Program-made: the position numbers and the translations under genes | Notes under the pieces: model-generated | Told to the model about the DNA's origin: nothing | What the model saw: the letters and a program-made list of their open reading frames with translations, nothing else | The model's database searches: none | Shown: positions 4,608-44,700 of the stretch, one piece after another | Position numbering within the stretch: position 1 is the stretch's first letter | Layout of the letters: each line of letters starts with the position of its first letter | Assembly (NCBI GenBank): GCA_964590995.1 | Contig: CAZPYY010000001.1 | Location: 762 to 64,761 of the forward strand | DNA from: an uncultured Planctomycetia bacterium | GTDB lineage: Bacteria > Omnitrophota > Gorgyraeia > Duberdicusellales > 4484-171 | Direction: 5' to 3' | DNA length: 64,000 bases

Positions 4608-5998
4608 AGCTTCACCCTGTAAGTAGTTCCAGTATTAGTATCCTCTAAGATTATGCCCCGTTCTTCTAGTTTCTTTCTTATGTCATCAGCTTCTTGATAT
4701 TTTTTCTGCTGCTTATAGTTAGAACGCATCTTTATTAACTTCTCGATATCTTTTGCTGGCATCTCAGTAACCTCTACAGGTTTAAAGCTAATACCAAAAA
4801 TATCTAAAATCTCTTCAACTAATCCGCCAATACCGGCTAATTTAGCTTTCAAATCAGCTTCGGTATCTAGAATCTTATTACTAGCACTAATTATATCGAA
4901 TAAGACTGCCAGGCCCTTAGGCATATTAAAATCATCATCCATAGCCTCAATAAACTTATCCCTAAATCGCTTTAATAGCCTTTCAGTCTCCTTAGTTGCT
5001 TTAGCCTTCTTCATTGAGCCTATTCGATTCATAAATATCTGAATTCTCTCATAAGCCTTTTTTGCCTCTTTCATTTTCTGATCGGAGAAATCTACTGAGC
5101 TAGAGTAGTGAGCTTGAAGATAAAATATCTTTAAGATATCCGCTGAGTATTTACTTACTGCATCTTGAATTGTAACAAAGTTCCCTAAAGACTTAGCCAT
5201 CTTCTGGCTATTAATAGTTAAAAGGCCATGGTGTATCCAGTAATTAGCAAAAACTCTTTCAGTTAAGGCCTCAGCCTGGGCGCACTCATTCTCATGGTGA
5301 GGAAAGATTAAATCCCTTCCTCCGCCATGGATATCTAAGGTATCAGTCTTTAAATACTTCCGGCTCATGACTGAGCACTCGATATGCCAACCGGGCCTGC
5401 CCTTTCCCCAAGGACTCTCCCAAGAAGGTTCTCCTTCCTTAGCCGTCTTCCAGAGAGCAAAGTCTAAAGGATCTTCTTTAGCCTCACCCTTTGATATTCT
5501 TACACCCTCTTTCATCTTATCAATACTCTGCCCGGAGAGCTTACCGTAATCTTTAAGCTTTCTTACGCTAAAGTAAACTCCGCTCTCAGTAACATAAGCA
5601 TACTCTCTATCAATTAACTTCTCGATATACTTAATCATATCTCCTACATTCTCAGTAGCCCGGGGTTCTTTATCGGCTTTACTAATACCTAGAGCTTTTA
5701 AATCCTGATAGTAGCTATCGATATACTTATTAACTAACTCCTTCCAATCAACTCCTAACTCCTTAGCCCGATTTATAATCTTATCATCAATATCAGTGAT
5801 ATTTCTTATAAACTGGACCTTATAACCCCGATACTTTAAGTATCTTCTGATGACCTCAAAGACATAGAGGCTTCTGGCGTGGCCAATATGACAATCATCA
5901 TAGACAGTAATTCCACAAACATACATCTTTACCAGAGATTTTTCCTGAGGGGTAAAGAGGTCTTTGGTCTTGGTTAAGGAGTTATGAATCTTTAACAT
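4604..5998 (-). CDS. cysS: cysteinyl-tRNA synthetase
   Basis: 464 aa; HIGH-type CHIGHARS and KMSKS-type KMAKSLGN; zinc-binding Cys near the N-terminus; 4-bp overlap with tmk. Confidence 0.9.
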   Translation of the reverse strand: MLKIHNSLTKTKDLFTPQEKSLVKMYVCGITVYDDCHIGHARSLYVFEVIRRYLKYRGYKVQFIRNITDIDDKIINRAKELGVDWKELVNKYIDSYYQDLKALGISKADKEPRATENVGDMIKYIEKLIDREYAYVTESGVYFSVRKLKDYGKLSGQSIDKMKEGVRISKGEAKEDPLDFALWKTAKEGEPSWESPWGKGRPGWHIECSVMSRKYLKTDTLDIHGGGRDLIFPHHENECAQAEALTERVFANYWIHHGLLTINSQKMAKSLGNFVTIQDAVSKYSADILKIFYLQAHYSSSVDFSDQKMKEAKKAYERIQIFMNRIGSMKKAKATKETERLLKRFRDKFIEAMDDDFNMPKGLAVLFDIISASNKILDTEADLKAKLAGIGGLVEEILDIFGISFKPVEVTEMPAKDIEKLIKMRSNYKQQKKYQEADDIRKKLEERGIILEDTNTGTTYRVKL

Positions 5999-6488: not shown

Positions 6489-7155
6489 TAATTATTTTAG
6501 CTAGCGCAAAATCTCTTGAATAAGTTATCTTAAAATTAAAGATATCCCCATAAATTACCTTTACTCTCTTACCCATAGCCTCTAGCATTTGGGCATCGTC
6601 CGTAGGCCCTGCCTTTGGCGGGGTAAACCTTCTCTTCTTGAACTTCTTGTAAGCTTGAAGAATTACCTTCCTTCTAAAACCTTGCGGGGTTTGGATAAGA
6701 TAAACATCTTCTCTGTTTAAAGTCTTCTTTACAAGGCCCTTCTTTACTAATTTAAGAGTATCCGGACACCTTAAGCCGCAAATTACTGCCGGATATTTTT
6801 TTAATTCCTTTAATATATCAAGGATTGTCTTCTTAGTTATAAAAGGCCTGGCAGCATCATGAATAAGAACATACTCTATATCCTTACTCAAAGCTGATAG
6901 ACCTTTAAATACTGAATCAGCTCTTTTGACTCCGCCTTCTACTAAGGTAATGAATTTAGCCTTAATATGCTCCTTAGATAAAGCAAAGTTAGATTTTCGT
7001 AAAACCAGCACAATTTCTTTTATTCCTTTTATACTCTTAAAAGTATTAAGAGATTTGCAGAAAAGAGGCTTCCCACCTAGCTTAAGAATAGCTTTATCTC
7101 CCTTAGCCAGCCTCTTACCCTTACCAGCTGAAACTATAACTACACCTGCTTTCAT
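6472..7155 (-). CDS. ispD: 2-C-methyl-D-erythritol 4-phosphate cytidylyltransferase
   Basis: 227 aa; N-terminal VIVSAGKGKRL nucleotide-binding motif; ispD-ispF arrangement. Confidence 0.85.
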   Translation of the reverse strand: MKAGVVIVSAGKGKRLAKGDKAILKLGGKPLFCKSLNTFKSIKGIKEIVLVLRKSNFALSKEHIKAKFITLVEGGVKRADSVFKGLSALSKDIEYVLIHDAARPFITKKTILDILKELKKYPAVICGLRCPDTLKLVKKGLVKKTLNREDVYLIQTPQGFRRKVILQAYKKFKKRRFTPPKAGPTDDAQMLEAMGKRVKVIYGDIFNFKITYSRDFALAKIISDERL

Positions 7156-9772: not shown

Positions 9773-10483
9773 TTAGGGTTTCCTTTTCTTTTTTGGCTTA
9801 TGCAATAGCTTCCAAGGATGTTCTTTTAAATCTGTAAGGAACTCCTCGGTCGTCTGATATAAAGAATCATCGTAAAGCAGGCGGCCGATTGTCCCCTGCT
9901 TACTCTTCATATCCTTGACTAACCCTTTTATATCTAAACTTATATCTTCTACGTTAGACAATATATTCTCTAGAGAAATTTTAATCTCACCTTCCTTCAC
10001 AAATTCGTCTATCTCCTTCATTGTTTTAGTAAAAGCAGTAAAGACCTGGAAGAGTGGCACTGGTGAAGTCCCCTCGATAATATCCCCTTCGTTTATATAA
10101 GCTGTTACTTCACCAGGAGGAGTAATCTCTAAATACTTTTCACCGAATAAACTTAAACTATTAACAAAATAATAGGAGCCCTTGGGGATTTTTATCCCCT
10201 TTTCTACCTTAGCATAGACATAAACCTTAGACTTAGCTTCCTCCCCTTTAATTACAACCTTTTTTACCTCTCCTACATCTACACCGCAGAAGCGGACCGG
10301 CGAAGATATACGCAGGCCTTCGGCAAAATCAAATTTAACAGTTATAACATAACTACCCTTAAAAACATTCACCTCCCGCATCGAAAGAAGGGTAATAAAA
10401 AATAGCCCGAAGGCAATCAAGAAAAAACTACCTAATTTTATATAAGCAAAACTTTTCTTCCTGTCCCATAGATTTATTGCCAT
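9773..10483 (-). CDS. mlaD: MlaD-like MCE-domain protein
   Basis: 236 aa; N-terminal TM anchor followed by an MCE domain (GLRISSPVRFCGVDVGEV); downstream of mlaE-mlaF. Confidence 0.75.
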   Translation of the reverse strand: MAINLWDRKKSFAYIKLGSFFLIAFGLFFITLLSMREVNVFKGSYVITVKFDFAEGLRISSPVRFCGVDVGEVKKVVIKGEEAKSKVYVYAKVEKGIKIPKGSYYFVNSLSLFGEKYLEITPPGEVTAYINEGDIIEGTSPVPLFQVFTAFTKTMKEIDEFVKEGEIKISLENILSNVEDISLDIKGLVKDMKSKQGTIGRLLYDDSLYQTTEEFLTDLKEHPWKLLHKPKKKRKP

Positions 10484-10496
10484 TCATACCCCCTCT

Positions 10497-11249
10497 TTAA
10501 ACTTCCATTTCCCTTATCGGGCCGCCGGAAGTTCCTTTTAAAAACTGAATTAGCCTCTCATCTTTGGATTTCTCTAAATTGTTTTTATCGCCCTCAAAGA
10601 TGATTTTTCCTCCTAATAAAAACGCTAAACGATCAGCAAGCCTTAAACCAACCTCTAAATCATGAGTTACTACTACTGAAGTAATAGCCAGACGCTGATG
10701 AAGATCTTCAATCAAATTTACTATTTTATCCACAGCAATAGGGTCAATTCCGGTAGTCGGCTCATCATAAATTATAATCTTGGGGTTGTAAATAATTGCC
10801 CTGGCTATAGCTACCCTTTTCTTCATCCCTCCGCTTAACTCATAGGGGTGCATATCCTCTATACCTTCTAAGCCGACCAGGGCTAAAGTCTCAGTTACTC
10901 TTTTCCTTATCTCAGATTTTTTTAGCTTTGTATGCTGATAAAAGAAGAAGCCGACATTCTCCTCTATGGTTAAGAAGTCAAAGAGAGCACTGCCTTGAAA
11001 AACCAGACCAAATTGTAATCTGACTTTTTCCAGCTTCTTCTTAGCTAACTGAGTAATATCTACGCCATCAATAGCAATAGTACCGGAATCAGGCCTTAGC
11101 AAGCCAAGGATGTTTTTAAGCAGGACTGTCTTCCCGGCACCACTGCGTCCAATCAACAGGTAGTTCTCACCCTTGTTTACCGTAAGGGTAACTCCTTTGA
11201 GAACATGCTTTTGACCAAAAGTCCTGTAAATGTTTCGTATCTTTATCAT
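10497..11249 (-). CDS. mlaF: MlaF-like ABC transporter ATP-binding protein
   Basis: Walker A GRSGAGKTVLLK, signature LSGGMKKRVAIARA, Walker B IIIYDEPTTGID. The ORF-track start at 11285 would overlap mlaE by 40 bp, whereas an internal ATG (MIKIRNI...) at 11249 gives a 4-bp ATGA overlap, so the start is called there. Confidence 0.85.
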   Translation of the reverse strand: MIKIRNIYRTFGQKHVLKGVTLTVNKGENYLLIGRSGAGKTVLLKNILGLLRPDSGTIAIDGVDITQLAKKKLEKVRLQFGLVFQGSALFDFLTIEENVGFFFYQHTKLKKSEIRKRVTETLALVGLEGIEDMHPYELSGGMKKRVAIARAIIYNPKIIIYDEPTTGIDPIAVDKIVNLIEDLHQRLAITSVVVTHDLEVGLRLADRLAFLLGGKIIFEGDKNNLEKSKDERLIQFLKGTSGGPIREMEV

Positions 11250-12010
11250 ACCCAAGTAAAGTAAAAAAGTGCCGTTAAAATACAATCAGTAATAATAATA
11301 AGCATAAAAGACCTTACTACTGAATGAGTCACTGAACGTGAAACATCAATAGATGAAAAAGGCCTAAATCCCTCATAGCAAGAGATAAAAGCAATCACAC
11401 TGCCAAAACAAATACTCTTAACAAGGCCGCTTAAGATATCTTTGAATCTTAAGGCATCAATGGTCATCCTAAAGTAAAGACCAGCCGGAATAGCAAATTT
11501 CGTTGACCCGACTACATACCCACCCACGATACCTAAAAAATCAGCATAGATAATTAAGACTGGCATACAAACAAGTAGGGCGATAAATTTTGGAACTACT
11601 AAGTAATCTATAGGCTCTACCCCTAATGCCTCTAAAGCATCTACCTGTTCACTGATCTTCATTGAACCAATGCCAGCAGTAATAGAAGCCCCGCTTCTAG
11701 CAGCTACAATCAAAGCACCGATTACCGGACCTAATTCTCTTACTAAAGAGAGAGCTACTAAGGAAGCGAGTTGGATTTCAGAACTAAATTGCTGTAATTG
11801 GTAGGCGGTTTGAAAAGCAATTATCATTCCGATGAAGAAAGCAATTAAGGAAACTAAGGGAAAACTATCAATACCAATGAAAATTACCTCTCGGACTAAG
11901 GACTTAAGATCTCTTTTCTTGGTAAATAGCCACCAGAAGATATTCTTTATAAAAAAGCTAATACTTCCTATATAATGGAATAATTCTCCTAACCCTCTAA
12001 TTAATCCCAT
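11246..12010 (-). CDS. mlaE: MlaE-like ABC transporter permease
   Basis: 254 aa polytopic membrane protein; conserved permease loop; operon position upstream of mlaF/mlaD. Confidence 0.8.
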   Translation of the reverse strand: MGLIRGLGELFHYIGSISFFIKNIFWWLFTKKRDLKSLVREVIFIGIDSFPLVSLIAFFIGMIIAFQTAYQLQQFSSEIQLASLVALSLVRELGPVIGALIVAARSGASITAGIGSMKISEQVDALEALGVEPIDYLVVPKFIALLVCMPVLIIYADFLGIVGGYVVGSTKFAIPAGLYFRMTIDALRFKDILSGLVKSICFGSVIAFISCYEGFRPFSSIDVSRSVTHSVVRSFMLIIITDCILTALFYFTWV

Positions 12011-17928: not shown

Positions 17929-17946
17929 CCATTACCTCCTACCGGT

Positions 17947-18624
17947 TTAGGATTCGCCTAAACCGAGCTCACCGTCTTTAATAAATAACCTATCCTTAGC
18001 GCACTTAGCTAACTCTAAATTATGAGTAACTAAGATTATTGTCTTATTCTTCTCTTTATTTAACTTACCTAATAGAGCAACTACCTTCTCTTGAGAGTCT
18101 TTATCTAGGTTGCCTGTAGGTTCATCACAGAGAATAACCTCAGGGTCATTAACCAAAGCCCGGGCAAAGGCCACCTTCTGCTTTTGCCCTCCGCTTAACT
18201 GCGAAGGAAAAGCCTTCTTCCTCTCCTCTATTCCTAAGTATTTTAACAAGTCTTCTATGGTTTTAAAAGAGTATTTTCGTCTATTTAAATCCAGGGCTAA
18301 AGTAATATTTTCAAGGATATTTAGCTCATCGATGAGGTGATAAAACTGAAAAACAAACCCAATATGCTTATTTCTCCATATTGAGAGCTCTTTATCCTTC
18401 ATTTTGTAGATATTTTTGCCCTTAAAAAGTACCTGACCTCTAGTAGGAGAGTCTAGACCGCCTAAGCTATGAAGCAAGGTAGACTTGCCTGCTCCGGAAG
18501 GGCCAACTATAGCCAGGTAATCTCCGGAATCAAGAGATAAAGAGAGCCCCTTTAAAGCCTGGATTCGCTCTTGGCCGCTACGATATTCTTTAGTTAAAGA
18601 ATTTACTTTAAATAACTCACTCAT
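17947..18624 (-). CDS. lolD: LolD/MacB-type ABC transporter ATP-binding protein
   Basis: 225 aa; Walker [13 protein letters not shown]; signature [15 protein letters not shown]; overlaps the FtsX-type permease gene. Confidence 0.75.
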
Positions 18625-19774
18625 AACGTAAAGCCTCGGAAGGCTGTAGCCTGGCTGCTCTCATTGCCGGGAGCAAGCTAAAGATAAAAGACAAAGCTAT
18701 CCCAACCAGAACAATTAAACTGATATCTCGATAATTTATTGCCATTGGCAAGTACTCAATGTAGTAAATCTCCTGGGGTAACTTTATAAAAGGAAACTTC
18801 TCTAAAGCAATACATAGGCCTAAACCTAAGACTGTTCCCGATAAGGTACCGATAAATCCTAAAAGTAGGCCTTGTAAACTAAATATTCTTGAAATCCTTT
18901 TGCGAGTAAAACCTAAAGATTTTAAAATTCCAATATCTTTAGTCTTCTCTACTACCCCTACAGTCAAAGTGGCAAAGATATTAAAAGCAGCAACTAAAAT
19001 TATTAAGCTTAAGATAATAAACATTACTAACTTCTCTAACTGCAAGGCTGAGAAGAAGACCTGATTAGATTCCATCCAGGTAGATACAAACACATCCTGG
19101 TTAAACTCAGCTAATATCTTCTCCTTTATTTGAGAAGCTTTATAGGGGTCGCTTATCCTGACCCCTAAGAAGAGAAGGTAATTAGAAGAGAGGCTCTTGG
19201 CTCGCTCTAAATCAGTGATAAGGTAATTGTTATCAATATCATAGAGGCCGACTTTGAAAGCTCCTCTTACAACTCCCCTCTGCAATTGCAGTTTTTTCTT
19301 CAAGGGATAGAACTCTATTCTGTCTAAGATAAAAAACCTTCTCTTTAATCCTTCACCAATAAAAAAGCCCTCGGAGGCTGTTTCTCTAGTAATGTATTGG
19401 TAGAGTATTTGTCTCTCTTCTTTGTCTTGGAAGTCAACTCCCTTAACTGCCAAAGGAAGAACTAGATTATCAAACTTAGCAAAGACTTGGGTCTGAAGCG
19501 ATATTGATGCAGCTTCTACATCTTCCCAAGTCTCTAACTCTTTTTCTATTTCCGGTAACTGCTCTTGATCTAAGCACTCTATAGTTAAATGCTGGTTAAA
19601 GCGCATTAACCTATCCATTAAATCCCGGTCAAAACCGTTCATTACCGAGATAACTACGATTAAAGTAGCTACACCGAGAGCTATCCCTAAGCAAGAGACA
19701 ATTCCGATAAAGGAAATATGCCTAGCTCTTCCGCGAAAAAGATAGCGCCGTGCCAAAAATAGTTCAGGTATCAT
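18617..19774 (-). CDS. LolC/LolE-type (FtsX/MacB family) permease
   Basis: 385 aa; N-terminal TM helix, large periplasmic domain, three C-terminal TM helices (FtsX fold); paired with the upstream ATPase. Confidence 0.7.
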   Translation of the reverse strand: MIPELFLARRYLFRGRARHISFIGIVSCLGIALGVATLIVVISVMNGFDRDLMDRLMRFNQHLTIECLDQEQLPEIEKELETWEDVEAASISLQTQVFAKFDNLVLPLAVKGVDFQDKEERQILYQYITRETASEGFFIGEGLKRRFFILDRIEFYPLKKKLQLQRGVVRGAFKVGLYDIDNNYLITDLERAKSLSSNYLLFLGVRISDPYKASQIKEKILAEFNQDVFVSTWMESNQVFFSALQLEKLVMFIILSLIILVAAFNIFATLTVGVVEKTKDIGILKSLGFTRKRISRIFSLQGLLLGFIGTLSGTVLGLGLCIALEKFPFIKLPQEIYYIEYLPMAINYRDISLIVLVGIALSFIFSLLPAMRAARLQPSEALRYE

Positions 19775-25480: not shown

Positions 25481-25873
25481 CCAAATTTTCTTTCTCAGCT
25501 GGTCACCGAAGTTACTATCGAGGTATGAAATAATTCTTGCTCTATCTATATCCCTTATCTTGGTAAATAAAATACCGCAAGAAGGAGTAGTTTCTGTTCG
25601 TTTTGTCCAAACTACCTTACCTAAAGCATCAATCTCACTGGGCTCCCCGGGAATATGAATAGTTAACTTTACCTCCTCTCCGGCCAAAGGAACGCTTGGC
25701 GAACTTATCCTAGCTCCTCTTAAACTTAAATCCAGTAGCCTTGCTTCCCAGACTTTATTGGAATTTACAAAGGTATAATCCAGAGGTATATCTACTTCCC
25801 AACGATGCCCCATTCTTGTCTGTTCTCCTCTCTCCTCTCCTCTTTCTTCCCTTCTCTCTTCCATCTCCCTCAC
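25466..25873 (-). CDS. PilZ-domain protein (putative c-di-GMP receptor)
   Basis: 135 aa; N-terminal EERREERGEERGE repeat (encoded by a CT-rich microsatellite) supplying RxxxR motifs; DLSLRGARI (D.S..G) motif; the true start may be the internal Met at MGHRWEV. Confidence 0.6.
   Translation of the reverse strand: MREMEERREERGEERGEQTRMGHRWEVDIPLDYTFVNSNKVWEARLLDLSLRGARISSPSVPLAGEEVKLTIHIPGEPSEIDALGKVVWTKRTETTPSCGILFTKIRDIDRARIISYLDSNFGDQLRKKIWWQDS
25815..25870. repeat. CT-rich (CTCTCC)n-like microsatellite inside the 5' end of the PilZ gene
   Basis: 'ctctcctctctcctctcctctttcttcccttctctcttcc' encodes the Glu/Arg repeat; potential slippage-prone tract. Confidence 0.4.
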
Positions 25874-25901
25874 CTCTCACTTGCCCGGTTGAGGACTGTC
25901 C

Positions 25902-26417
25902 TCAACCGCTCTTCTGCCCACCCCGGGGGTGTACATTTTTGGTTTCTTTTAAAAATACACGCCCAGCTCTAGAGATGTTAAGCATATGAATTATGTAGAT
26001 GCGGATAGCTAATACTATCAATATTGTAATGCCTGTATGCGCCCACAAGCCAAACCATGAATCGGTTACTAGAAGTTTCTTTACTGAGATTGAGTATATT
26101 GGCCACCAAATATTTATTATAGGTATAGTAAATAAATTCCACCAAGCTAAAATAATAGCTAATGTTCTAGCGAAATTAAATCTTAATAGAAGCAGAAGAA
26201 TTCCGATAAAGAAAGTAATTACACTTAGCATCGCTAAATAATTACGATAAGCATCTAAAAGGAAATAGATTTCTGAAGGTGTAGACTCCATTGTAGTTAC
26301 TCCTATGAGTAATTCCCAAACACCTGAAATTAAGTGGAAAATTGCTATTGCTACAACATGACAATTTGCCCGGTTTTTTGATAATTGTTTTGTCATCTTC
26401 TTTTTCTTTTTATTCAT
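25902..26417 (-). CDS. small integral membrane protein (4 predicted TM helices), translationally coupled to the giant gene
   Basis: 171 aa; poly-Lys N-terminus; four hydrophobic helices; GGAGGG Shine-Dalgarno sits in the 15-bp gap after the giant ORF stop (26433). Confidence 0.5.
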   Translation of the reverse strand: MNKKKKKMTKQLSKNRANCHVVAIAIFHLISGVWELLIGVTTMESTPSEIYFLLDAYRNYLAMLSVITFFIGILLLLLRFNFARTLAIILAWWNLFTIPIINIWWPIYSISVKKLLVTDSWFGLWAHTGITILIVLAIRIYIIHMLNISRAGRVFLKETKNVHPRGGQKSG

Positions 26418-26432
26418 GCGACCCTCCTCAAA

Positions 26433-26760
26433 TTAATATTTAGGTATCGACGGTATATGTATCGGTGGTGGAGTATACACTGGCGGCATATCAATATTCA
26501 CAGGGAATTGCGGCTTAAATGGGTCTCTGTAATTAGGTGTCGGCGGTATATACACTGGTGGTGGATTATATACCGGCGGCGTATAATGATTATTCATCAT
26601 CTGCTGATATACCGGATTCGTTTTTATCTCCGGCGGAGGGTTGTAAATTCTGTTTATGTTTGGAAATTGGCGCATAGTGTTAGGGCCACGGTAATTCCTA
26701 ATAGTATCTATTAGCGGTGTTTTTGGTACATTAAACTGTTGTAAATCCCGCTGAAGCTGT
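26433..26760 (-). repeat. coding low-complexity Pro/Tyr-rich tail (PPVY/NPPP repeats) at the C-terminus of the giant protein
   Basis: protein ends ...YTPPVYNPPPVYIPPTPNYRDPFKPQFPVNIDMPPVYTPPPIHIPSIPKY; DNA shows reiterated ggcggtata[tc]ac units. Confidence 0.7.
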
Positions 26761-29700
26761 TGCTGATAATTAGGTATAATTCCCACTGGTGTCTGTGGTA
26801 TAAGTGGTTCTCTGTAGCGCTCAAAAGGAGTTTCTCCCATAATATGTTTTTGTCGCCAAGTATCAGACATGCTTGGGGTAAGCATATTGGGTCGAATATG
26901 ATAATTTGGCTGTGTAGAATCATAACCTTTGGTATGAGCTTTCCACACTCCGGGAGCAGCAACGCCTTCAAAATTATATATACCTGGCCAATTTCCTCCC
27001 CTAGGGAAATAATGCCATTTAGATACATCCTGGTCTCTAATCATTATATCTAAATTCGGCATATTTAAATTAGGGTGAATTTCATGAATTTTATGCGAAA
27101 TTACTAAAGGATCATTGTAAGTAAGGTGTGCTCCAGCAATATCTTTAAAGTCATTTATACGATAAGGGTATATTGAATCATAACGATTAATACCAAAAGC
27201 TTTAAAGCCAAAGGCATTATAAACAGGATCCCCTTGCAAAGCTATATTCTCCCACTTTTGGTCCAAACTTGAAAAATCACGCCAGGAAGGAGACCCAAGA
27301 CTTACGAGATGAACTCTGTGTTCATCAAAAAGCTGGCGCACACGCGGATCTAAATCCGGAGAAAGGAATCTTTCTCCTACCAAATTCCCACCGCTGTACA
27401 TCACTGCCATTATTCTGCCTTTTTCTCCTACTATATCTTTAGCCTTTAGCATTGTACCGTCTAATCTTAGCTGAGCATCTAGAATATCCTTACCTGGATT
27501 CCGTATATCTCCGCTAAAAATATTTCCAGTCCAAGAATGTTCAATAACTTTTATTCCACTCAGCTTTAGAATTCTTATAAAAGGCCGATTTCCAGTAACA
27601 TCTACATTTAAATCTCTACGGTTGTAAGGATTAAACCCCAGTAAAGAATCATCAACACCAGGAATAACTATCGCAACATCTATTTTTGGTATATTTTGAT
27701 TTATCTGGGGCCTTACTGATTCTGCTAATAATGGTTCAATGGTCTTTAAGGAAAGCGCTGCAATTGCACGATTCCAAGTATCAGGTTCCTGTTTTAAAGC
27801 GTCTGCCAAAGGATTCACTAACTGAGGATTTTCATGCACTCTAACTCCTAAATTAGCTATTGCGCTTCTACGCACAAATACGGAATCATCTTTTAATGCC
27901 GGAGTAAGTAAATTATCTACAGAAGGTTGCTCTAACCTCCCTATAGCATCAACTGCTACGCTCCTTATCTGCCAAGATTTATCATCGAGAAGCGGTTTGA
28001 TGTCGTTAGCTATATTAGGATATTGAGTAATTTTGCTTCCTAAGCCTTGCACTGCAATACTGCGTATTGTGTTATCACGCACTGTATCCAAAGCAATGGA
28101 AGTTAAGGGTGCTAGGGTAGCCGGTGAGTTAATTCGGCCTAAGGCTAAGGCTGAAGCCCGGCCTAAGCCTAAATTATCGCTATGTAAATTATCTTTGATT
28201 GCTTCTATAGCTTCAGGCTTATTAATATTCCCCCAGCCAAGGCCAAGGGTAGCTGCTGAACGGACTAAGGGGTCAGGATCTATCTTAGCTATCTTAATAA
28301 AAGACTTACTTACGGCAGGCATATCCGTTACTTTCCCACTTAAACCTTCTACTGCTGCTAAACGTACCTTTTGGCTATCGTCTTCTAAATAAGGTATTAC
28401 CTCTTTCAAAGGAGCATCGGGAACTTTAGCAAATGACTGGATAGCCGTAGCGCGGATAATCGCATTATCTTCCTTAATTATCCGGCTTAATTCAGTAAGC
28501 GCCCTCTTGTCCTCAGTAAGCCCTAAGGAAAATACTGCTACTTGTTTAGTAGGAATATCCGGACTATTCAGATAAGGCTTTATCATATCTACTGCATATC
28601 CACTCTTTGATTGGCCTAAATTTAATAAAATTCTCTTCTGAAAATCTGGATTATTACTCTTCTTTAATATCTCTTCAATGGGCTCTTTCAACTGAGGATA
28701 ATCTTCAATATGAGGAGATAAAGCAATCGCTGTTGCCTGTTGTATTCCTACTTCTTTATCGTTTAGCATCCTGGTTATCGCAGCTATTGCTTGTGGTTCT
28801 TTACTTCCTCTTAAACTATTTACGCAAGCTAACTTTACATTATTATCCCTCGCTTTATTTAAAAGCTCAATAGTTAAATCGGTTATCTGGGAATTTTCTT
28901 TTATTTTGTCAGAAAGTACTGCTATAGCTGCTGAGCGAACTAAAGGGTCGGGGTCAGTTTTGACAATTTCGATAAATGAATCCTTGATTTGTGGTATATC
29001 TGCCACTTTGCCACTTAAAGCATTTATGGTTGTCAAACGTACAATTTTACTCTCATCATACAAATAAGGCTTCAAATTCACAATTGGCGCCTCCGGAATT
29101 TGAACAAATGAATGTATGGCTATGGCGCGGATAAGCTCAGTGTTTTCCATAATAGTCCGGATAAGCTCGGCAAGCGCTCTTTGATCTTTGGTAAAACCTA
29201 AAGATAAAACTGCTGTTTGTTTAATGGAAATATCCGGGCTATCCAGATAAGGCTTTATCATATCAACAGCATACTTGCTCTTTACCTGAGCCAAACCAGC
29301 TAAAATTCTTTTTTTGGTATCTTTATCTTTCCCTTTTAATGCCTCATCAAGAAACTTTCTTAATTGAGGGTAATCATCTACATAGTTTATCAAAGCAATA
29401 ACTACCTCGGGCGGAATCGAAGGAGAAATATCACAAAGTTTCTGATACAACGGCTCAATTAGCTCCGGATGCTTCTTTAAATTATTAAGGTATACTAAAA
29501 CAGCTGTATACCCTATCTCTACCTTGGGATTCACAAGTACATATTGGACATCCTGACCTGAAGAATAATATGACTGACTTCCATCGGACCAAACACATTT
29601 TCCTGTAGTCATTATACTTTTAGAATGATATCTATTATGTTTTTTCAAATGATATTTTACAGGGCCGTTAACATCTTCCTCGCGCAAAATTTTACCGATC

Positions 29701-32700
29701 AAATCAATTATTTTAGGATTATCATCTATCCTGTCAGAAAGTGCCAGCATAGCCGCTACCCGCACGCTAACTTCTTCATCCTTATTGGAAACAAACTCAA
29801 ACAATAAATCTGTAACTTCTTGTTCTTTAAACTGTACTAAAGAAGATATTATTTTACAACGCGTTCCTGAAACATAATCTTTTGCTGCCTTGATTAATAC
29901 AGGCAAAACCTCTCTACCTCCGATACGCCCTAAAGCAAATATTACATTTGATTGAAATTCTTTATATTCAGCCTTTTCTAACAGCTCAATTAAGTATGAA
30001 GTTGCTTTTGAACCACCCAATTTACTTAACGCCACAATTGCTTCTTCCATTACATTAATATCTCTGCCTTTTAAGTTTGAATCATACTTTTTCGGATTTG
30101 AGATAATATCAATAAGATATTTTACTGCCTGGGGACTTCCTAGCTGTGCTAAAGAGAAAACAGTTAAAACAAATACTCGTTCTCTTATCTCCTCTGTAGT
30201 CCACTTATTTGGTAAAAGTAGCCTCAAAATGAACTCATGTTTAAATTCATCTGCATTGTAATCCCCCTTGAGGGCTTTCATTAATGTATCTTTGGCCAAA
30301 GAATCGCCTAAACATGCTAATACCCTTGCAGCATAGAAGGGGGTCCGAAAATTATCACTCTTTAAGGCCCTTAAATACCCTCCGTACAACTCCTCATGAG
30401 TCACTCCCAACTTAATCAAAACATCTCCTGGAGGATAAAATAACTTAGGTTCTACAATATATAAATTATGCTGCCCGGCAGCCCCGGTTGTCATCTGTAT
30501 ATAGCCATCCACTAATCCTTTCTTTATCTCGTTAGTCATCTCAGGTGCACGAAATAGTTTAGGGCTTTGGGTGGATACACACCAATAGTAAATTAAAGCA
30601 TTACCATAATTTTTACGTTTAAGTGCTCTCTCTGCTATCTTAATCTGTTTATGCGTGAAAGCTCCAGAGCCTGGGGTAGCACACCCACTGTGAAAAACCA
30701 AACTTAATAAAAGCAATATAATTATAGCCTTACCAAGAAATGATTTTACCTTGTTTAGGCGAATCCCTGCCTTGCCGGCAGGCAGGCTAAACACCTCCCG
30801 GTTGAGGACTGTCCTCAACCGCTCTTTAAGGCTTTTGCCTGTTATATTTTCTTCCCCTACCGGAGAGCTGGTCGACTCAAACTTAATCTTAAATACTTCT
30901 ATTTGAAGCCCTAATATCATATCCTGCTGTCCAGCAGGGCTGTAAGCAGGAATGATGCCAAGTTTCCTATCCTCAGCAGCCGTAACTAAAACCAAGGCTG
31001 CCGGATTTCTTATTTTTAGTGCCTCAGCAAAGTTTTTTGTTTTTTTGCGTATTACTTTCTCATAATCTCTATACTCTATAGAAGGATCATAATCATCTAT
31101 GGAAGAGTAATAATCAAACTCGATAACTGTTACTAAATTACGCGGAAAGGGCAACACAGAAAGGTTGTATTGATCTACTACTCTATCTCCGATATAGTCA
31201 TCGCAATAGTACCCTGGTATAGAAGGCGTAATCCACCAGGGCTCAATGGCTAATCCTCTCTCAACAAGGTAAGGTACCCAATTATTATTCTTAAGCATAC
31301 CCGAATAAACCCAATTATCCGAATGCTCGTCGCCATAGAAAAGAGAAAAAGGTGCTTTAAGAATTCCGCGAGCAACCAGTCTTTCTAACCATCTAATACC
31401 TGGAGCGTGTATCCGGCAAAGAGCGACAGGACAATCCAGCAATAAAGAAACTCCCTCTGATATTTTAATTGGGCTGGAGCTAAAGGATAAAGTTTGATGG
31501 TTTTGAGGATTATCAAGAACTGTGGATTTCTTAGCTTTAGAAGAAAGGGCAGGCGAAGAGGCCCCACCAGCCACGGAAGAGGTAACCTCTTCTTGAGTTT
31601 TAACCTGCCCTTTTATATTATTATACCTTTTTAAATTACCAAGGGAGAGAATTTTCTTAAATATTTTTTTTGTGTTATATATGATTTTAATTTTTTCTTT
31701 GGATATCTTGAAGAAGGTAAATATTTTAAATGACTTCCTAATCGGTGGTGCGTGTGATTTAAAATTTAATATATAAAACTGCACTGGGGAGCTGGAGGAA
31801 TTTTCTTGCTGATCTAGCATTCCTGGAACTTTTGTCAAGGCGATAATTAAGCGGATAATCCTGGAGTTTCTGGCAATCATCTCATCCCGGCTTAACCATA
31901 TGGGAATTCCTAAGTTATTGAATATAGAGCTAAGGAAAAAACTTTGATTGAAACCTTCTCCTTCCTTAATAAAATTAAGTATGTCTTTTTCCGAAAGCCT
32001 TCCTATTTCCTGGGAAATGCTTTCTAACTGAGATGTATAATGGAATAGAGGTTGAGGGATGAATATGTTAATTGTGTCAGTCAATTCCAAAGCCACTTCG
32101 TTATGCATACATCTTATAGCAAAAGTAATTGGTTTTTCAATGGCCGGCAATCTACTCATTGTCTGGTATACCCCATCAAAGATACCGAGTACAACCTGAC
32201 TGTTTGCCGGGCTCACCTTTACAGGTTGATCTTTAACTATTTTATATATACCTTCATCAATATCCTCTCCAGTTAAAAACAGGGCCCTTTCCGCCACCTC
32301 TTTACGCAAGTAAAATTCTGCCTTGCCCCTGCGTTGTTTATCCTCCAGCATAAGCCTAAAATATGGCTCATCATGCGTATTGACCAACTTAAGCGAAATG
32401 GAATAAGAGGATGATTGAATCGGCGAGCTGGAATCACCATTTTTTAACTGTTTTGCAGAACCAATAATCCTATCTTTTAACCTATTACTTAGTTGTTTCA
32501 TGAACTCTTCGCTTGTTTTTATATCAACTGTCAATGCCTGAATAACTTTAGGGTCAACCTCTGTATGTTTTACCAAGGCTTCTATTAAATAATCTAAGAG
32601 ATAATTTAGTATCTGAGAAAATACTTCTTTTTTGAACTTTACATCATGCATATCCTGCAAAGATAATAAAAGACGCTTGATTGTTTCCTTTATGTCCTTG

Positions 32701-41700: not shown

Positions 41701-44700
41701 TCTCTCTTGCTTCTGTCGCCTCGGACAAGGATTCCGAATTCATCGCGCCGTAATATTGCGGCGGGGCCTTTGGGGTCAATTAGACAATCAACTGAATTTC
41801 CTGAGATTCTTAATCGATATTTTACCGCAGTAATCTTTTTTACATCATCCACAGGCGAGCTGGAGAAAACTGAGTCATTGTTATACGCGGCAATTAATCC
41901 TCGAATTACATCTACCACATCTTCATCTTCTGAGGCCTTTGGCTCACCAAACAAGTCTACGAATATATCCAGACCAAATTCATCAACTATATCACTAAGA
42001 TTTAACTTAACTATGTCTATGATCTTTTCTCGATAGATATTTAATCCGAGATTGCTTGATTTCAATATATCCCGTAAAGACAAGAGCCGCTGAAGCACTT
42101 CTTTCTTAAAATCCTTCCTTCGTTTACTGAATAATTTTAAGAAAATATCCTCTATCTGATGAGAGGTCCGTTCTTTTCTTAAATAGTTTATGAGTAAACG
42201 TAACCCTGATACACTAGCAATATCGCGGGCAGTATCTAATTCCTTTTGTTTAAGTTCAGGGATCATTCTCCACAATTCCTGCTTCACCTTATTTATTCTG
42301 GTAAGAGCACGGCCGGGAGAGCGGCTAAGTCCATAAACCCATAAGTTGCGAATGCGCTGTTTTATCGAACTTTTATAGTAGTTATAGATTTCATAATCAT
42401 CATCCAATAAACTTAATTCATAATCGCTGAGTGGCCCCCAAAAAGAAGAAACATACCGCTTTTCTGACTTTCTAAACCAAAGGGCGAATTCCTCGTCTAA
42501 GTCGGATTCTAAAGAAGTACACCTGATGACCAAACCGTCTTTGATAATAATCCTTACTCTCTCATTAGGATGCCTGCGAAATCTCGCCCATGACCTTATT
42601 CTTGCTCGCCTTAAGCCATTGACTAAAGGTCTGGCACCGCCCAAACGAAGACTTCCGTTGCTGTCTAAAAAACCGTAGGTAGTAACATCTTTAAGTTTAG
42701 CGAATTTCTCCGGCCTTATTCTCCCCCTATAAACATCGATAACCCTCCCTGTTTTATTATCTATAATAGGGAAAAATTCAAACATTGAACAATCATTCAA
42801 AAAGAATATTCTCATAGGCATCCCATTATAGATTTCCAGCTCATACTCTGTATTGCAATAGCCTTTAAATTGAAACGGGCCCATTTTCTTTCCCAAACTT
42901 ACCCGCGCCCTGCTATTGGTTTTACCCCTTACTACTATATGCCCAAACTGCACTCTCTTTTTGTATCGAAGAGGGAGGTCTTCCTTATTTATATAAACCT
43001 GACCGGTCAATTTACCCTCAAAAGAATGAGCAAGAATCTGACGCCACATACCTTTTCTTATTTTTAGGTCCCTATCAGTCTCTGAGGCGATACCGCCTTT
43101 GCTTTCAGGCCTTAGTTGCTTCTGCATCGCAATTATTGTTTTATTCTCTGGGCCTCGAGCCTTAAAATCATCTACAGTGCAAATAGGACCGTTTCGTAAC
43201 TCATTTACATCCACAGGCGAGCTGGAGGAAACTGTATATCTCAACAACGTATCATAGCTCTGCAGTAACGCTGTTTTTGCCTTTTTTTCTACGTCCCCAT
43301 CCCATGCTCGGCAAGGCCTTAGGCTTTGGGCGATTTCATCGCAATAAAATGGCAATATATCTTGAGCGGATTTCAAGAATAACCCTCCAAAAGTAAATTG
43401 TCTGCCTGGGTCAAAATTCTTTATGCGCTGATTATCAATACCGTAATTGAACGCCTTTAATATATCGATGCTTATAAATCCTTGAGAAAGTATATCTCCG
43501 ATAGCCCCAATGAATTTCATAGCCAGGGGCTTTCTCTCGGCTAAGGGATAAGAGGTTAATTCGCTCTCTAATTCTGCAACTTTCTGCTGAATCACTATAT
43601 CAAAACCGGCTAAGCGTGTTAGTTGTGTATTTACCAAACGGTCTGCATACATACTCTGGGCATTGCGATAACTATTTCTTATTGGTCGGGCCCAATGCTT
43701 CTTTATCGGCTTCACAACGATTTTCTTACCTATATATACACGCGCTGTATGTTTAAACTTAGGATTATACAGGACACCGAATCCCAATTCTCTCATCCAG
43801 TCTGTAACATCTAAAATTGAAGCTTTCGTTGTATCTCTCTGAGTACTACATAGTTGTTTTATTAGTCTCATTTCTTCGCTGAGAAAACATTTTGCTACAG
43901 GCGAGGAGGAAGTTCTTTCCTCAACATCTTCTTTATTCTTATTGCTTTTATAGTCTTCTTTAATTAAATGGTCAAATAAAAGATTCAAGAAAGTCCATGC
44001 GCCCCAACCTAATACAATCTTTACTACGCCCCAATTGAAATTCATTACTATCTTTCCTGCGCCTACCATTAGAAAAGATGCTATTGCGGCAAAAACAGAA
44101 AAGAAACCATTAAATCCAAAAAAATCTTTAATAAAAATCTTTAATGGTACGCTAGCTTGAGTTTTTAACCTATTGCTTCTAGCAGTATCAGCAAGATATA
44201 AAGAAACGGCTATTGCGATGCAGCCTAATATTAAAGAATATCTCAGAATCTCGCCAGACAACACATTTCCCACAGGCGAGCTGGAGTGGACTCGATAAAA
44301 ACTGTTTTTAGGAAACACATAGTTATACATTCCCTGAATTCCGCCACTTAAGCGCTCAGAATATGGGAAACAATTAGGAAAACATTCTGCCATTGTGTCA
44401 GCAGCGTGAGTTGTTTCATCAATTATAAGATAACCTAATGGTTTCAGTAGTTCTTTGGCTTTATCTAGCCATTCTTTCGGCCTGCCAAAAATCCTTCTTC
44501 CACCTACAAAATCAATGAATGTCACAAGGTCGAAACTGTGTGGTTTTAAACCATATTGCTTGATATCAAAAACGCCTATTTCGCTATGGACGAACCTAAT
44601 CTTAAGGTCTAATATTAAGTCCTGTTTCTTTAAACTATTGGAAATAGCTATTGCGTACGCTTCAACGAGCTGAGTTTTGCCCTCATCTACATCTACGAAA

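Follow-up and report, generated by a model that had tools for sequence, protein, structure and literature searches.

A conserved lipoprotein-signal-like segment deep within the giant open reading frame of an uncultured Omnitrophota bacterium

Does a giant bacterial protein act as one chain, or is it cut into pieces? The question is open; West-Roberts et al. (2023, bioRxiv 10.1101/2023.11.21.568195) state that the cleavage points are unknown and that this gap stood in the way of their own analysis. Papers on the giant genes of Omnitrophota have proposed cleavage by C39 or S8 peptidases. The question is raised anew by a 64,000-nucleotide (nt) stretch of DNA from an uncultured Planctomycetia bacterium placed by GTDB in the Omnitrophota (GenBank assembly GCA_964590995.1, contig CAZPYY010000001.1, positions 762 to 64,761), hereafter called the window. 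Its minus strand carries part of a giant open reading frame (ORF), and deep within this ORF lies a segment with the layout of a lipoprotein signal peptide. The segment is real and conserved and, to our knowledge, undescribed at such a position. We give even chances to the reading that it is a working internal lipoprotein-type signal (Sec/signal peptidase II, or Sec/SPII), which would export the C-terminal HEAT/esterase-like module of the giant and then be lipidated by Lgt and cleaved by LspA.

The minus-strand translation of the segment reads ...REVFSLPAGKAGIRLNKVKSFLGKAIIILLLLSLVFHSGCATPG... and falls into three parts (residue numbers here and below are those within the window part of the protein):
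30729 to 30761, minus strand: basic n-region RLNKVKSFLGK, giant residues 11077-11087, net charge +4
30693 to 30728, minus strand: hydrophobic h-region AIIILLLLSLVF, 12 residues (11088-11099)
30681 to 30692, minus strand: lipobox-like HSGC, residues 11100-11103, with the Cys11103 codon at 30683-30681

A preliminary description of the window, made from its letters, had reported a lipoprotein-signal-like architecture inside a continuous ORF. This is borne out: a basic n-region, a 12-residue core and HSGC follow one another with no stop in frame. The coordinates it gave (30695-30770) end just short of the Cys codon. This is the most hydrophobic 19-mer among the 12,518 codons of the window part (Kyte-Doolittle 2.23) and the sole match in the window protein to a loose n-h-[AGS]C pattern, which residue shuffles match 0.12 times per protein. 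Fifteen uncharged residues precede the Cys, in line with the short h-region (approximately 7-22 residues) that ends at the lipobox in Sec/SPII signals, and the 12-residue core is short for a stable transmembrane (TM) helix. The Cys of a lipoprotein usually lies approximately 15-35 residues from the initiator; this one stands within an ORF that exceeds 30,000 codons.

The extent of that ORF was assessed in public data. In the window it runs without a stop on the minus strand from 26433 to the edge at base 64000, where the frame is still open (12,518 codons counted from the first TTG). The same locus is present in six independent public assemblies (JGI, ENA) at 99.96-99.99% identity. On the public contigs the giant gene is called at 25,848-30,257 amino acids (aa), the longest call being on contig Ga0171658_1000072, and every call starts at contig base 2-3. 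The calls are therefore truncated and the true gene exceeds 30,257 aa, so the segment lies more than 28,800 residues into the protein; the preliminary figure of about 11,200 residues counted the window part only. A sequencing or assembly error between two genes, through a lost stop codon or a frame shift, would also give such an internal segment, and a TGA does occur in the +1 frame directly after an AAAA run, within a palindrome (HP1, described below) at the junction between the segment and the upstream part. Against this, the 401-nt junction is identical and open in frame in all six assemblies, and the homologous junction is also open in the related loci L007 and L008 and in fragments from other lineages. 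Because the identical open junction recurs in six independent assemblies, the segment is not an assembly error; the artefact explanation keeps next to no probability and is already effectively refuted.

Relatives were collected with HMMER, in an exhaustive search that took the C-terminal 1,200 aa of the giant as query (68 matches below 1e-30), and junctions were compared by BLAST with the junction as query and by a MAFFT alignment of 13 junctions. Genome and metagenome scans gave one related species, represented by L007 ('uncultured Planctomycetia bacterium') and L008, which is 99.6% identical to L007, and beyond it two weak HEAT loci; a word-indexed protein search with the 700-aa junction returned two weak HEAT matches only, the giant itself being absent from that index. 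The informative relatives come from the HMMER search. In L007/L008 the ORF is open for 2.8 kb upstream, and MFRPGLNQTKSFLRKGIIILFLLGLSLYSGC stands ahead of a module that is 56-58% identical in its HEAT part. The same layout is found in 12 relatives, in register with the same downstream TPR/HEAT module and nearly always internal: a basic stretch (net charge +3 to +6), a hydrophobic core (mostly 12-13 residues, up to 18), [S/N/T][G/S/A] and Cys, followed by a shared domain reading ...GVTxEELYxGYLRALxxxxFxxxFYAAR... The uncharged run is 14-19 residues in the twelve, the Cys lies anywhere from position 69 to 2650, and identity in the adjoining domain is approximately 22-36%. Sites among these relatives are as follows:
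P0004: lipobox LNSGC, Cys 131 of 1090 residues
P0044: lipobox FNSSC, Cys 474 of 1255
P0038: lipobox FSSGC, Cys 1073 of 2287
P0008: lipobox FSSGC, Cys 1380 of 2609
P0036: lipobox SNNGC, Cys 529 of 1555
P0045: lipobox FNSGC, Cys 983 of 1711
P0006: lipobox LISAC, Cys 299 of 1449
P0041: lipobox GNNGC, Cys 2650 of 3691
P0015: lipobox LLTSC, Cys 101 of 1324
P0048: lipobox VNNGC, Cys 146 of 1231
P0014: lipobox NMVGC, Cys 69 of 1186

The Cys is kept in 12 of 14 aligned relatives, the -1 residue is always G/S/A, and the -3 residue is atypical (H/N/Y/S). In L014, L015 and L016, as in L008, the ORF is open upstream to the contig edge, so L014-L016 are fragments of longer genes. Among the relatives none was found that has both flanks and lacks the segment, the arrangement that the preliminary description had named as its counter-example. 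When the window is compared with its relative L011, the segment is the best-conserved stretch of the N-terminal half of the module; nucleotide identity is 83-93% from HP1 to the Cys codon and 40-60% directly after it.

Such segments are also recurrent. We surveyed 152 HMMER relatives (255,000 residues) for sites in which a Cys follows A, G or S, 13 uncharged residues precede the Cys, a 10-mer has a mean hydropathy of at least 2.2 and the upstream net charge is at least +2. Twenty-one internal sites were found, compared with 0.4 (standard deviation 0.6) in shuffled sequences. Because shuffling destroys hydrophobic clustering, a second control was added: [AGS]C stands at an eligible position in 21 of 142 n+h segments, where composition predicts 1.18 (an 18-fold enrichment). 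Four relatives have two or three internal sites each, and HEAT or TPR modules follow their signal-like segments:
P0008: internal Cys sites at residues 930 and 1380
P0010: internal Cys sites at residues 1219 and 1526
P0040: internal Cys sites at residues 2116, 2866 and 4242
P0045: internal Cys sites at residues 728 and 983

Across 22 sites the uncharged run is 14-24 residues long (mostly 15-19, median 16); the Cys lies a median of 16 residues past the last charge, and other hydrophobic runs have a median of 20. Roughly half of the sites have a TM-like helix, placed 45-60 residues ahead of the Cys and followed by a basic loop; read together with the signal, this would be the stop-transfer/start-transfer arrangement of polyproteins. 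The units of P0040 are near-repeats (YVLAKVFRLRK...). Conservation and recurrence indicate a selected, working signal and not a relic.

Two stand-alone homologues of the module carry ordinary lipoprotein signals at their N-termini, and are thus of the kind for which the preliminary description had proposed to look in related genomes. P0007 is a separate 723-aa gene that starts MRILVSIILIASIFLAAGC (FLAAGC) and lies directly after an oppC-like gene; P0050 starts MKKNILILIIFGLGIFLNIGC (FLNIGC), an N-terminal signal with Asn at -3 as in many of the internal sites. The module probably began as a separate lipoprotein gene, and in some lineages has probably remained one; in this family it stands in frame with the giant gene. 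To this extent the earlier proposal of a fossil N-terminus from a once-independent gene was well aimed, as it tied the segment to a gene boundary and to independent lipoprotein genes. The word 'fossil' does not fit: n-region, core, small -1 residue and Cys are kept in register in 12 relatives, with 21 recurrences where about one is expected. Nor is fusion by recent stop-codon loss likely, because fused ORFs occur in distant relatives. The stand-alone homologues and the boundary-like context of the junction are what one would also expect of an inert relic, the leftover N-terminus of a fusion that has no targeting role, with the module remaining cytoplasmic. We hold this very improbable: all features of the signal, including the Cys, are conserved over deep divergence and recur, and conservation drops from the segment to the mature domain next to it.

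From this conservation and recurrence, the length of the core, the N-terminal signals of the stand-alone homologues, the boundary-like context and the Lol-like genes nearby, we infer export, lipidation and cleavage in the following manner. As the ribosome nears the end of the giant ORF, the basic n-region would stay in the cytoplasm and the 12-residue core would insert into the translocon in an N-in/C-out orientation. Export of the next 1,415 residues would carry the TPR/HEAT solenoid, the cutinase-like esterase domain and the Pro-rich tail across the membrane; Lgt would place a diacylglyceryl group on Cys11103, and LspA would cleave between Gly11102 and Cys11103. The C-terminal module would thereby be freed as a separate lipoprotein, and the signal would remain as a membrane tail of the upstream giant.

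Several points weigh against this proposal. Measured against the lipobox [LVI][ASTVI][GAS]C, Gly at -1 and Ser at -2 fit and His at -3 does not, and strict PROSITE-type lipobox patterns give no match because of this His; the canonical form fits approximately 4 of 13 relatives, others having Asn or Tyr at -3. P0043 and P0067 keep the hydrophobic segment without the Cys. Several lineages have an in-frame GTG or ATG at the aligned -30 position, where translation could start separately. The genes lgt and lspA were not seen within the window, and its Lol-like proteins, for which Lol families are the best NCBIfam matches, score below the curated cutoffs of these families. We know of no natural bacterial precedent for cleavage by LspA at an internal site, and a search of the literature found none.

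The non-canonical -3 residue speaks for a signal-anchor that is never cleaved, in which case the module would be translocated and stay covalently tied to the giant, whether or not the Cys is lipidated. The segment has positive-inside charge and is the strongest hydrophobic one in the window, which would suit this role, and the giant proteins of Omnitrophota have been described as multi-TM. However, a core of 12-13 residues is too short for a stable helix, an anchor has no need of the small residue and Cys that are enriched 18-fold, and the stand-alone homologues bear real lipoprotein signals. We judge the uncleaved anchor unlikely.

Separate initiation is best considered with the nucleotide context of the junction, in which the following elements were found:
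30799 to 30821, minus strand: palindrome HP1 (CGGTTGAGGACAGTCCTCAACCG), a perfect 11-bp stem with TGA in the +1 frame
25886 to 25908, minus strand: another copy of HP1, identical to the first, at a real boundary between genes
30792 to 30799, minus strand: GGGAGG (30799-30794), Shine-Dalgarno (SD)-like, overlapping an in-frame GTG (30794-30792)
30752 to 30793, minus strand: palindrome HP2, TGTTTAG...CTAAACA, with a nested 21-nt hairpin (CCTGCC GGCAA GGCAGG, 30782-30766)
17944 to 17964, minus strand: HP2-like palindrome GGTTTAGGCGAATCCTAAACC, with the TAA stop of a LolD-like gene inside it and, downstream, GGAGG and the start codon (ATG) of the gene that follows

HP1 lies within a 30-nt repeat (30826-30797) that is identical to 25913-25884. 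Its second copy holds the TGA stop (25904-25902) of a 171-aa ORF and is followed by an SD and the start of the first PilZ gene. L011 has a copy of HP1 at the corresponding site in which two base pairs differ in both arms of the stem (GGAC/GTCC to GATC/GATC; the peptide changes from TV to SD), and two further members of the HP1 family lie upstream of a pilZ gene (4966-4986 and 5044-5064). Over the family (two copies in the window and three in L011), both bases are changed in 4 of the 10 pairs, and pairing is kept in 97.5% of cells. The HP2 stem is kept in L011 and L008 with different loops. The 121-nt junction of the window folds much better than shuffled sequences (z = -4.4); that of L008 does not. 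No Rfam match at E<=1 was found in 25500-31500. With palindromes of two families at gene ends, these elements are REP-like punctuation of operons. They resemble the repetitive extragenic palindromes (REP/BIME type) known from enterobacteria in being short, GC-rich and multi-copy, in their place at gene ends, in compensatory stem changes and in one nested insertion; they differ in that two of them sit inside an ORF and are translated. The lengths of the HP1 repeat and of the nested hairpin (30 and 21 nt) are divisible by three, and HP1 and HP2 may either have remained from a spacer between genes or have been inserted later into a linker that tolerates them. Deeper relatives have the fused layout without these palindromes and with an SSSP[V/I] motif 20-25 residues ahead of the core. 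The junction thus looks like a gene boundary of this genome, yet is read through in frame.

Two further candidates were considered at the junction and rejected. An intrinsic terminator or promoter finds no counterpart there: neither HP1 nor HP2 is followed by a T-run, and the minus strand upstream showed no promoter-like site. A programmed frameshift onto the TGA of HP1 was dismissed as the window (CTT AAA GAG) and L011 (AAA AAA GAG, with a 2-nt spacer) share no slippery site; the +1 TGA and nearby -1 stops do exist, and off-frame stops are expected in AT-rich DNA.

The preliminary description had stated that there was no start codon or SD nearby, which is incorrect: GGGAGG and the in-frame GTG lie 37 codons ahead of the Cys, and the codon aligned to this GTG is ATG in L008 and CTG in L011. 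Were GTG 30794 the initiator, the Cys would be residue 38. Initiation at this GTG (the ATG of L008), with or without read-through, would make the module a nested gene for a lipoprotein precursor with a 37-residue signal. It is in keeping with this that ATG, GTG or CTG stands at the aligned -30/-31 position in the window, L008, L011, L014, L015 and L016, that the two palindrome families mark true gene boundaries with an SD and a start downstream, that L012 is a stand-alone gene, and that the ORFs of L011 and L013 begin close to the signal (112 codons before it in L011, at most 105 in L013). However, the GGGAG abuts the GTG with zero spacer, compared with 5-8 nt for real genes of the window; L011 has CTG, and L008, L014 and L015 have no SD before their ATG; many internal sites, e.g. 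those of P0040, P0038 and P0044, are without any candidate start; the upstream DNA offers no promoter-like site; and Met in that range is only weakly above chance. We rate a nested gene as rather improbable, somewhat below the uncleaved anchor. The hairpins and GGGAGG would then be a retained intercistronic region. Such initiation may coexist with a working internal signal.

L011 (1-3365) is a 59%-identical relative in which the ATG of the ORF follows AT-rich DNA that looks non-coding and has stops in all frames. It keeps motifs of the penultimate region of the giant (SAASPV, YILNFKSHAPPI and SSVAGGASSPA), and is either a truncated giant or a contig-end artefact.

The cargo of the putative signal was analysed by domain searches and modelling:
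26436 to 30683, minus strand: putative mature module of 1,416 aa, from Cys11103 (included in the count) to Tyr12518
27021 to 27683, minus strand: confident core of a cutinase/esterase-like alpha/beta-hydrolase fold in an AlphaFold model
26436 to 26792, minus strand: C-terminal proline-rich tail, PPVYNPPPVYIPP...

The module consists, in order, of a TPR-like helical N-domain, HEAT_2 repeats (approximately 29990-27810; eleven matches), an alpha/beta-hydrolase-like domain and the Pro-rich tail. The unannotated C-terminal domain occupies 26700-27740 on the minus strand (giant residues 12084-12430); it has no Pfam match, and a PDB sequence search with it gave chance matches only. An AlphaFold model from a 12-sequence alignment has a predicted local distance difference test (pLDDT) score of 63.6 overall and more than 85 in the core. 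Its best PDB matches are cutinases, lipases and esterases, and are weak (E approximately 1e-3, TM-score 0.28-0.45). All 12 sequences share the same Ser, Asp and His residues of the modelled segment: Ser116 (within YSGGN, or within HSAGN or DSAGN among relatives), Asp160/171 and His205. The domain is thus predicted, on the model, to be a cutinase/lipase-like alpha/beta hydrolase. Such a fold with invariant Ser, Asp and His and a Pro-rich tail would be plausible exported cargo, and a lipid-anchored esterase that is borne on a solenoid arm and has a Pro-rich spacer would be suited to a place outside the cytoplasm.

Genes for LolCE-like and LolD-like proteins (17947-19774) and a MlaF/MlaE/MlaD cluster (9773-12010) lie on the minus strand 7-17 kb downstream. 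Given these Lol-like and MlaFED genes, the organism probably has an outer membrane and lipoprotein sorting, that is, a diderm envelope in which a lipoprotein could be sorted.

Upstream of the segment, two features are relevant to the topology of the giant:
43959 to 44264, minus strand: upstream TM cluster, residues 6576-6677, with strong hydrophobic segments at 6576-6604 and 6623-6651 and a weaker third
30819 to 31526, minus strand: lineage-specific insert of approximately 236 aa (residues approximately 10822-11057), between an SSVAGGASSPA motif and the junction

The preliminary description had divided the giant by four membrane crossings, with a middle part of approximately 1,150 aa that included a C39-like peptidase. 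The sizes in this scheme are wrong: with the TM helices at residues 6576-6677, the middle part is approximately 4,400 aa. The C39-like peptidase was also rejected, as residues 6701-11080, between the TM cluster and the segment, have no Pfam match to a C39 peptidase at E<=1; the best Pfam match there is methyltransferase-like, weak and below the Pfam cutoff. A methyltransferase-like domain at this place would fit the N-in orientation proposed for the segment. Archaeovorin-type giants have a SecA DEAD-like domain and, near the N-terminus, a C39 or S8 peptidase; no match to these was found in the 12,518 residues encoded in the window, which cover at most the C-terminal half of the gene. For the 209-aa domain that directly precedes the junction, searches gave neither homologues nor a PDB sequence match, and the single-sequence AlphaFold model is unusable (pLDDT 35).

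How does the segment compare with known systems? It resembles Sec/SPII lipoprotein signals (the pathway of Lgt, LspA, Lnt and Lol) in its basic n-region, short h-region, small -1 residue and invariant +1 Cys, and the homologous modules P0007 and P0050 carry such signals at a true N-terminus. It differs in lying more than 28,800 residues in and in having His, Asn or Tyr at -3 in place of Leu, Val or Ile. Type II signal-anchor (start-transfer) helices are likewise internal and positive-inside and start the export of a downstream domain; here a core of only 12-13 residues leads into a conserved [S/N][G/S/A]-Cys. The polyproteins of flavi-, pesti- and bunyaviruses offer another parallel: the internal signals of their glycoproteins, often placed after a stop-transfer helix, restart translocation and are cut by host signal peptidase, which defines the successive products of one ORF. 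TM-loop-signal units of this kind are seen in L008, P0008, P0010 and P0040. In contrast to the viral case, this is a cellular bacterial gene, for which we predict cleavage not by signal peptidase I but by signal peptidase II, once the Cys has been lipidated.

The gene itself resembles the 'Archaeovorin'-type giants of Omnitrophota: it has an ORF of more than 30,000 aa, domains that include HEAT_2 and Lysine_decarbox, TM helices and small pilZ genes downstream, a synteny that has been reported for these giants (West-Roberts et al. 2023, bioRxiv 10.1101/2023.11.21.568195). Two preprints on giant genes do not mention a lipobox, and our literature search found neither an internal lipobox in bacteria nor any lipobox in Omnitrophota giants. 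One of the two, a large survey of 2026, discarded internal signal-peptide calls on purpose as chunking artefacts, and the feature may therefore have been systematically overlooked. An old Escherichia coli experiment with an internalised lipoprotein signal was reportedly carried out by Coleman, Inukai and Inouye in 1985.

A conserved and recurrent internal lipobox gives an exact candidate cut site, which is Gly11102|Cys11103 in the window, with a predicted product of approximately 1,416 aa, a lipoprotein with an esterase-like domain. The n-h-[AGS]C layout is also a simple sequence rule by which further sites can be found. If LspA does act at internal sites, the accepted substrate range of the lipoprotein pathway would be wider. 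A broader reading, which we put forward tentatively and judge somewhat improbable as a whole, is that the giants of the PVC/Omnitrophota group are poly-lipoprotein precursors, in which internal signals restart export and serve as Lgt/LspA sites, several anchored products arising from one ORF. If true, this would be a cellular counterpart of viral polyprotein processing by signal peptidase, and would provide the first concrete cleavage points for giant bacterial proteins.

Downstream, the giant gene is followed by the 171-aa ORF and two PilZ genes, and this order of giant gene, small ORF and two pilZ genes is retained in relatives. The 171-aa ORF (25902-26417, minus strand) has no family match. 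It encodes a conserved small membrane protein (MTKQL..HVV.I.IFHLISG.W) that also follows the giant ORF in L008 (6200-6690).

The giant is further punctuated by a short peptide motif, [S/A/T]SSP[V/I/..], of which approximately 30 copies occur on the minus strand from 63551 to 30858 (residues 147-11044), one every 100-1,200 residues. The exact form SSSP[VI] has 18 copies, compared with approximately 0.03 expected, as estimated from residue frequencies. The last [S/A/T]SSP[V/I] copy lies close to the segment:
30858 to 30872, minus strand: TSSPV (ACCAGCTCTCCGGTA), 37 residues ahead of the n-region

The insert of approximately 236 aa described above, which holds SSSPI near its start and TSSPV near its end, is absent from L011/P0004 and from L008; its flanks (SSVAGGASSPA ... 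ERLRxxLNRExF) are conserved in L011/P0004. The insert itself gave no homologues and no usable model. Its absence between the same flanks suggests that modules are gained or lost at SSSP-type motifs. The DNA of the motif (TCCAGCAGCCCG in the first part, TCCAGCTCGCCGGT in the second) never changes frame and is near-constant and GC-rich in an AT-rich gene, and its Ser codons are minor ones elsewhere in the giant gene. These features point to a constraint that may act at the DNA or RNA level, or to a possible module-boundary or processing site. The nucleotide motif CCAGCTCGCCGGT is also present in distant relatives, at position 3090 of L013, at 429 and 1503 of L014, and at 242, 3461 and 7901 of L015.

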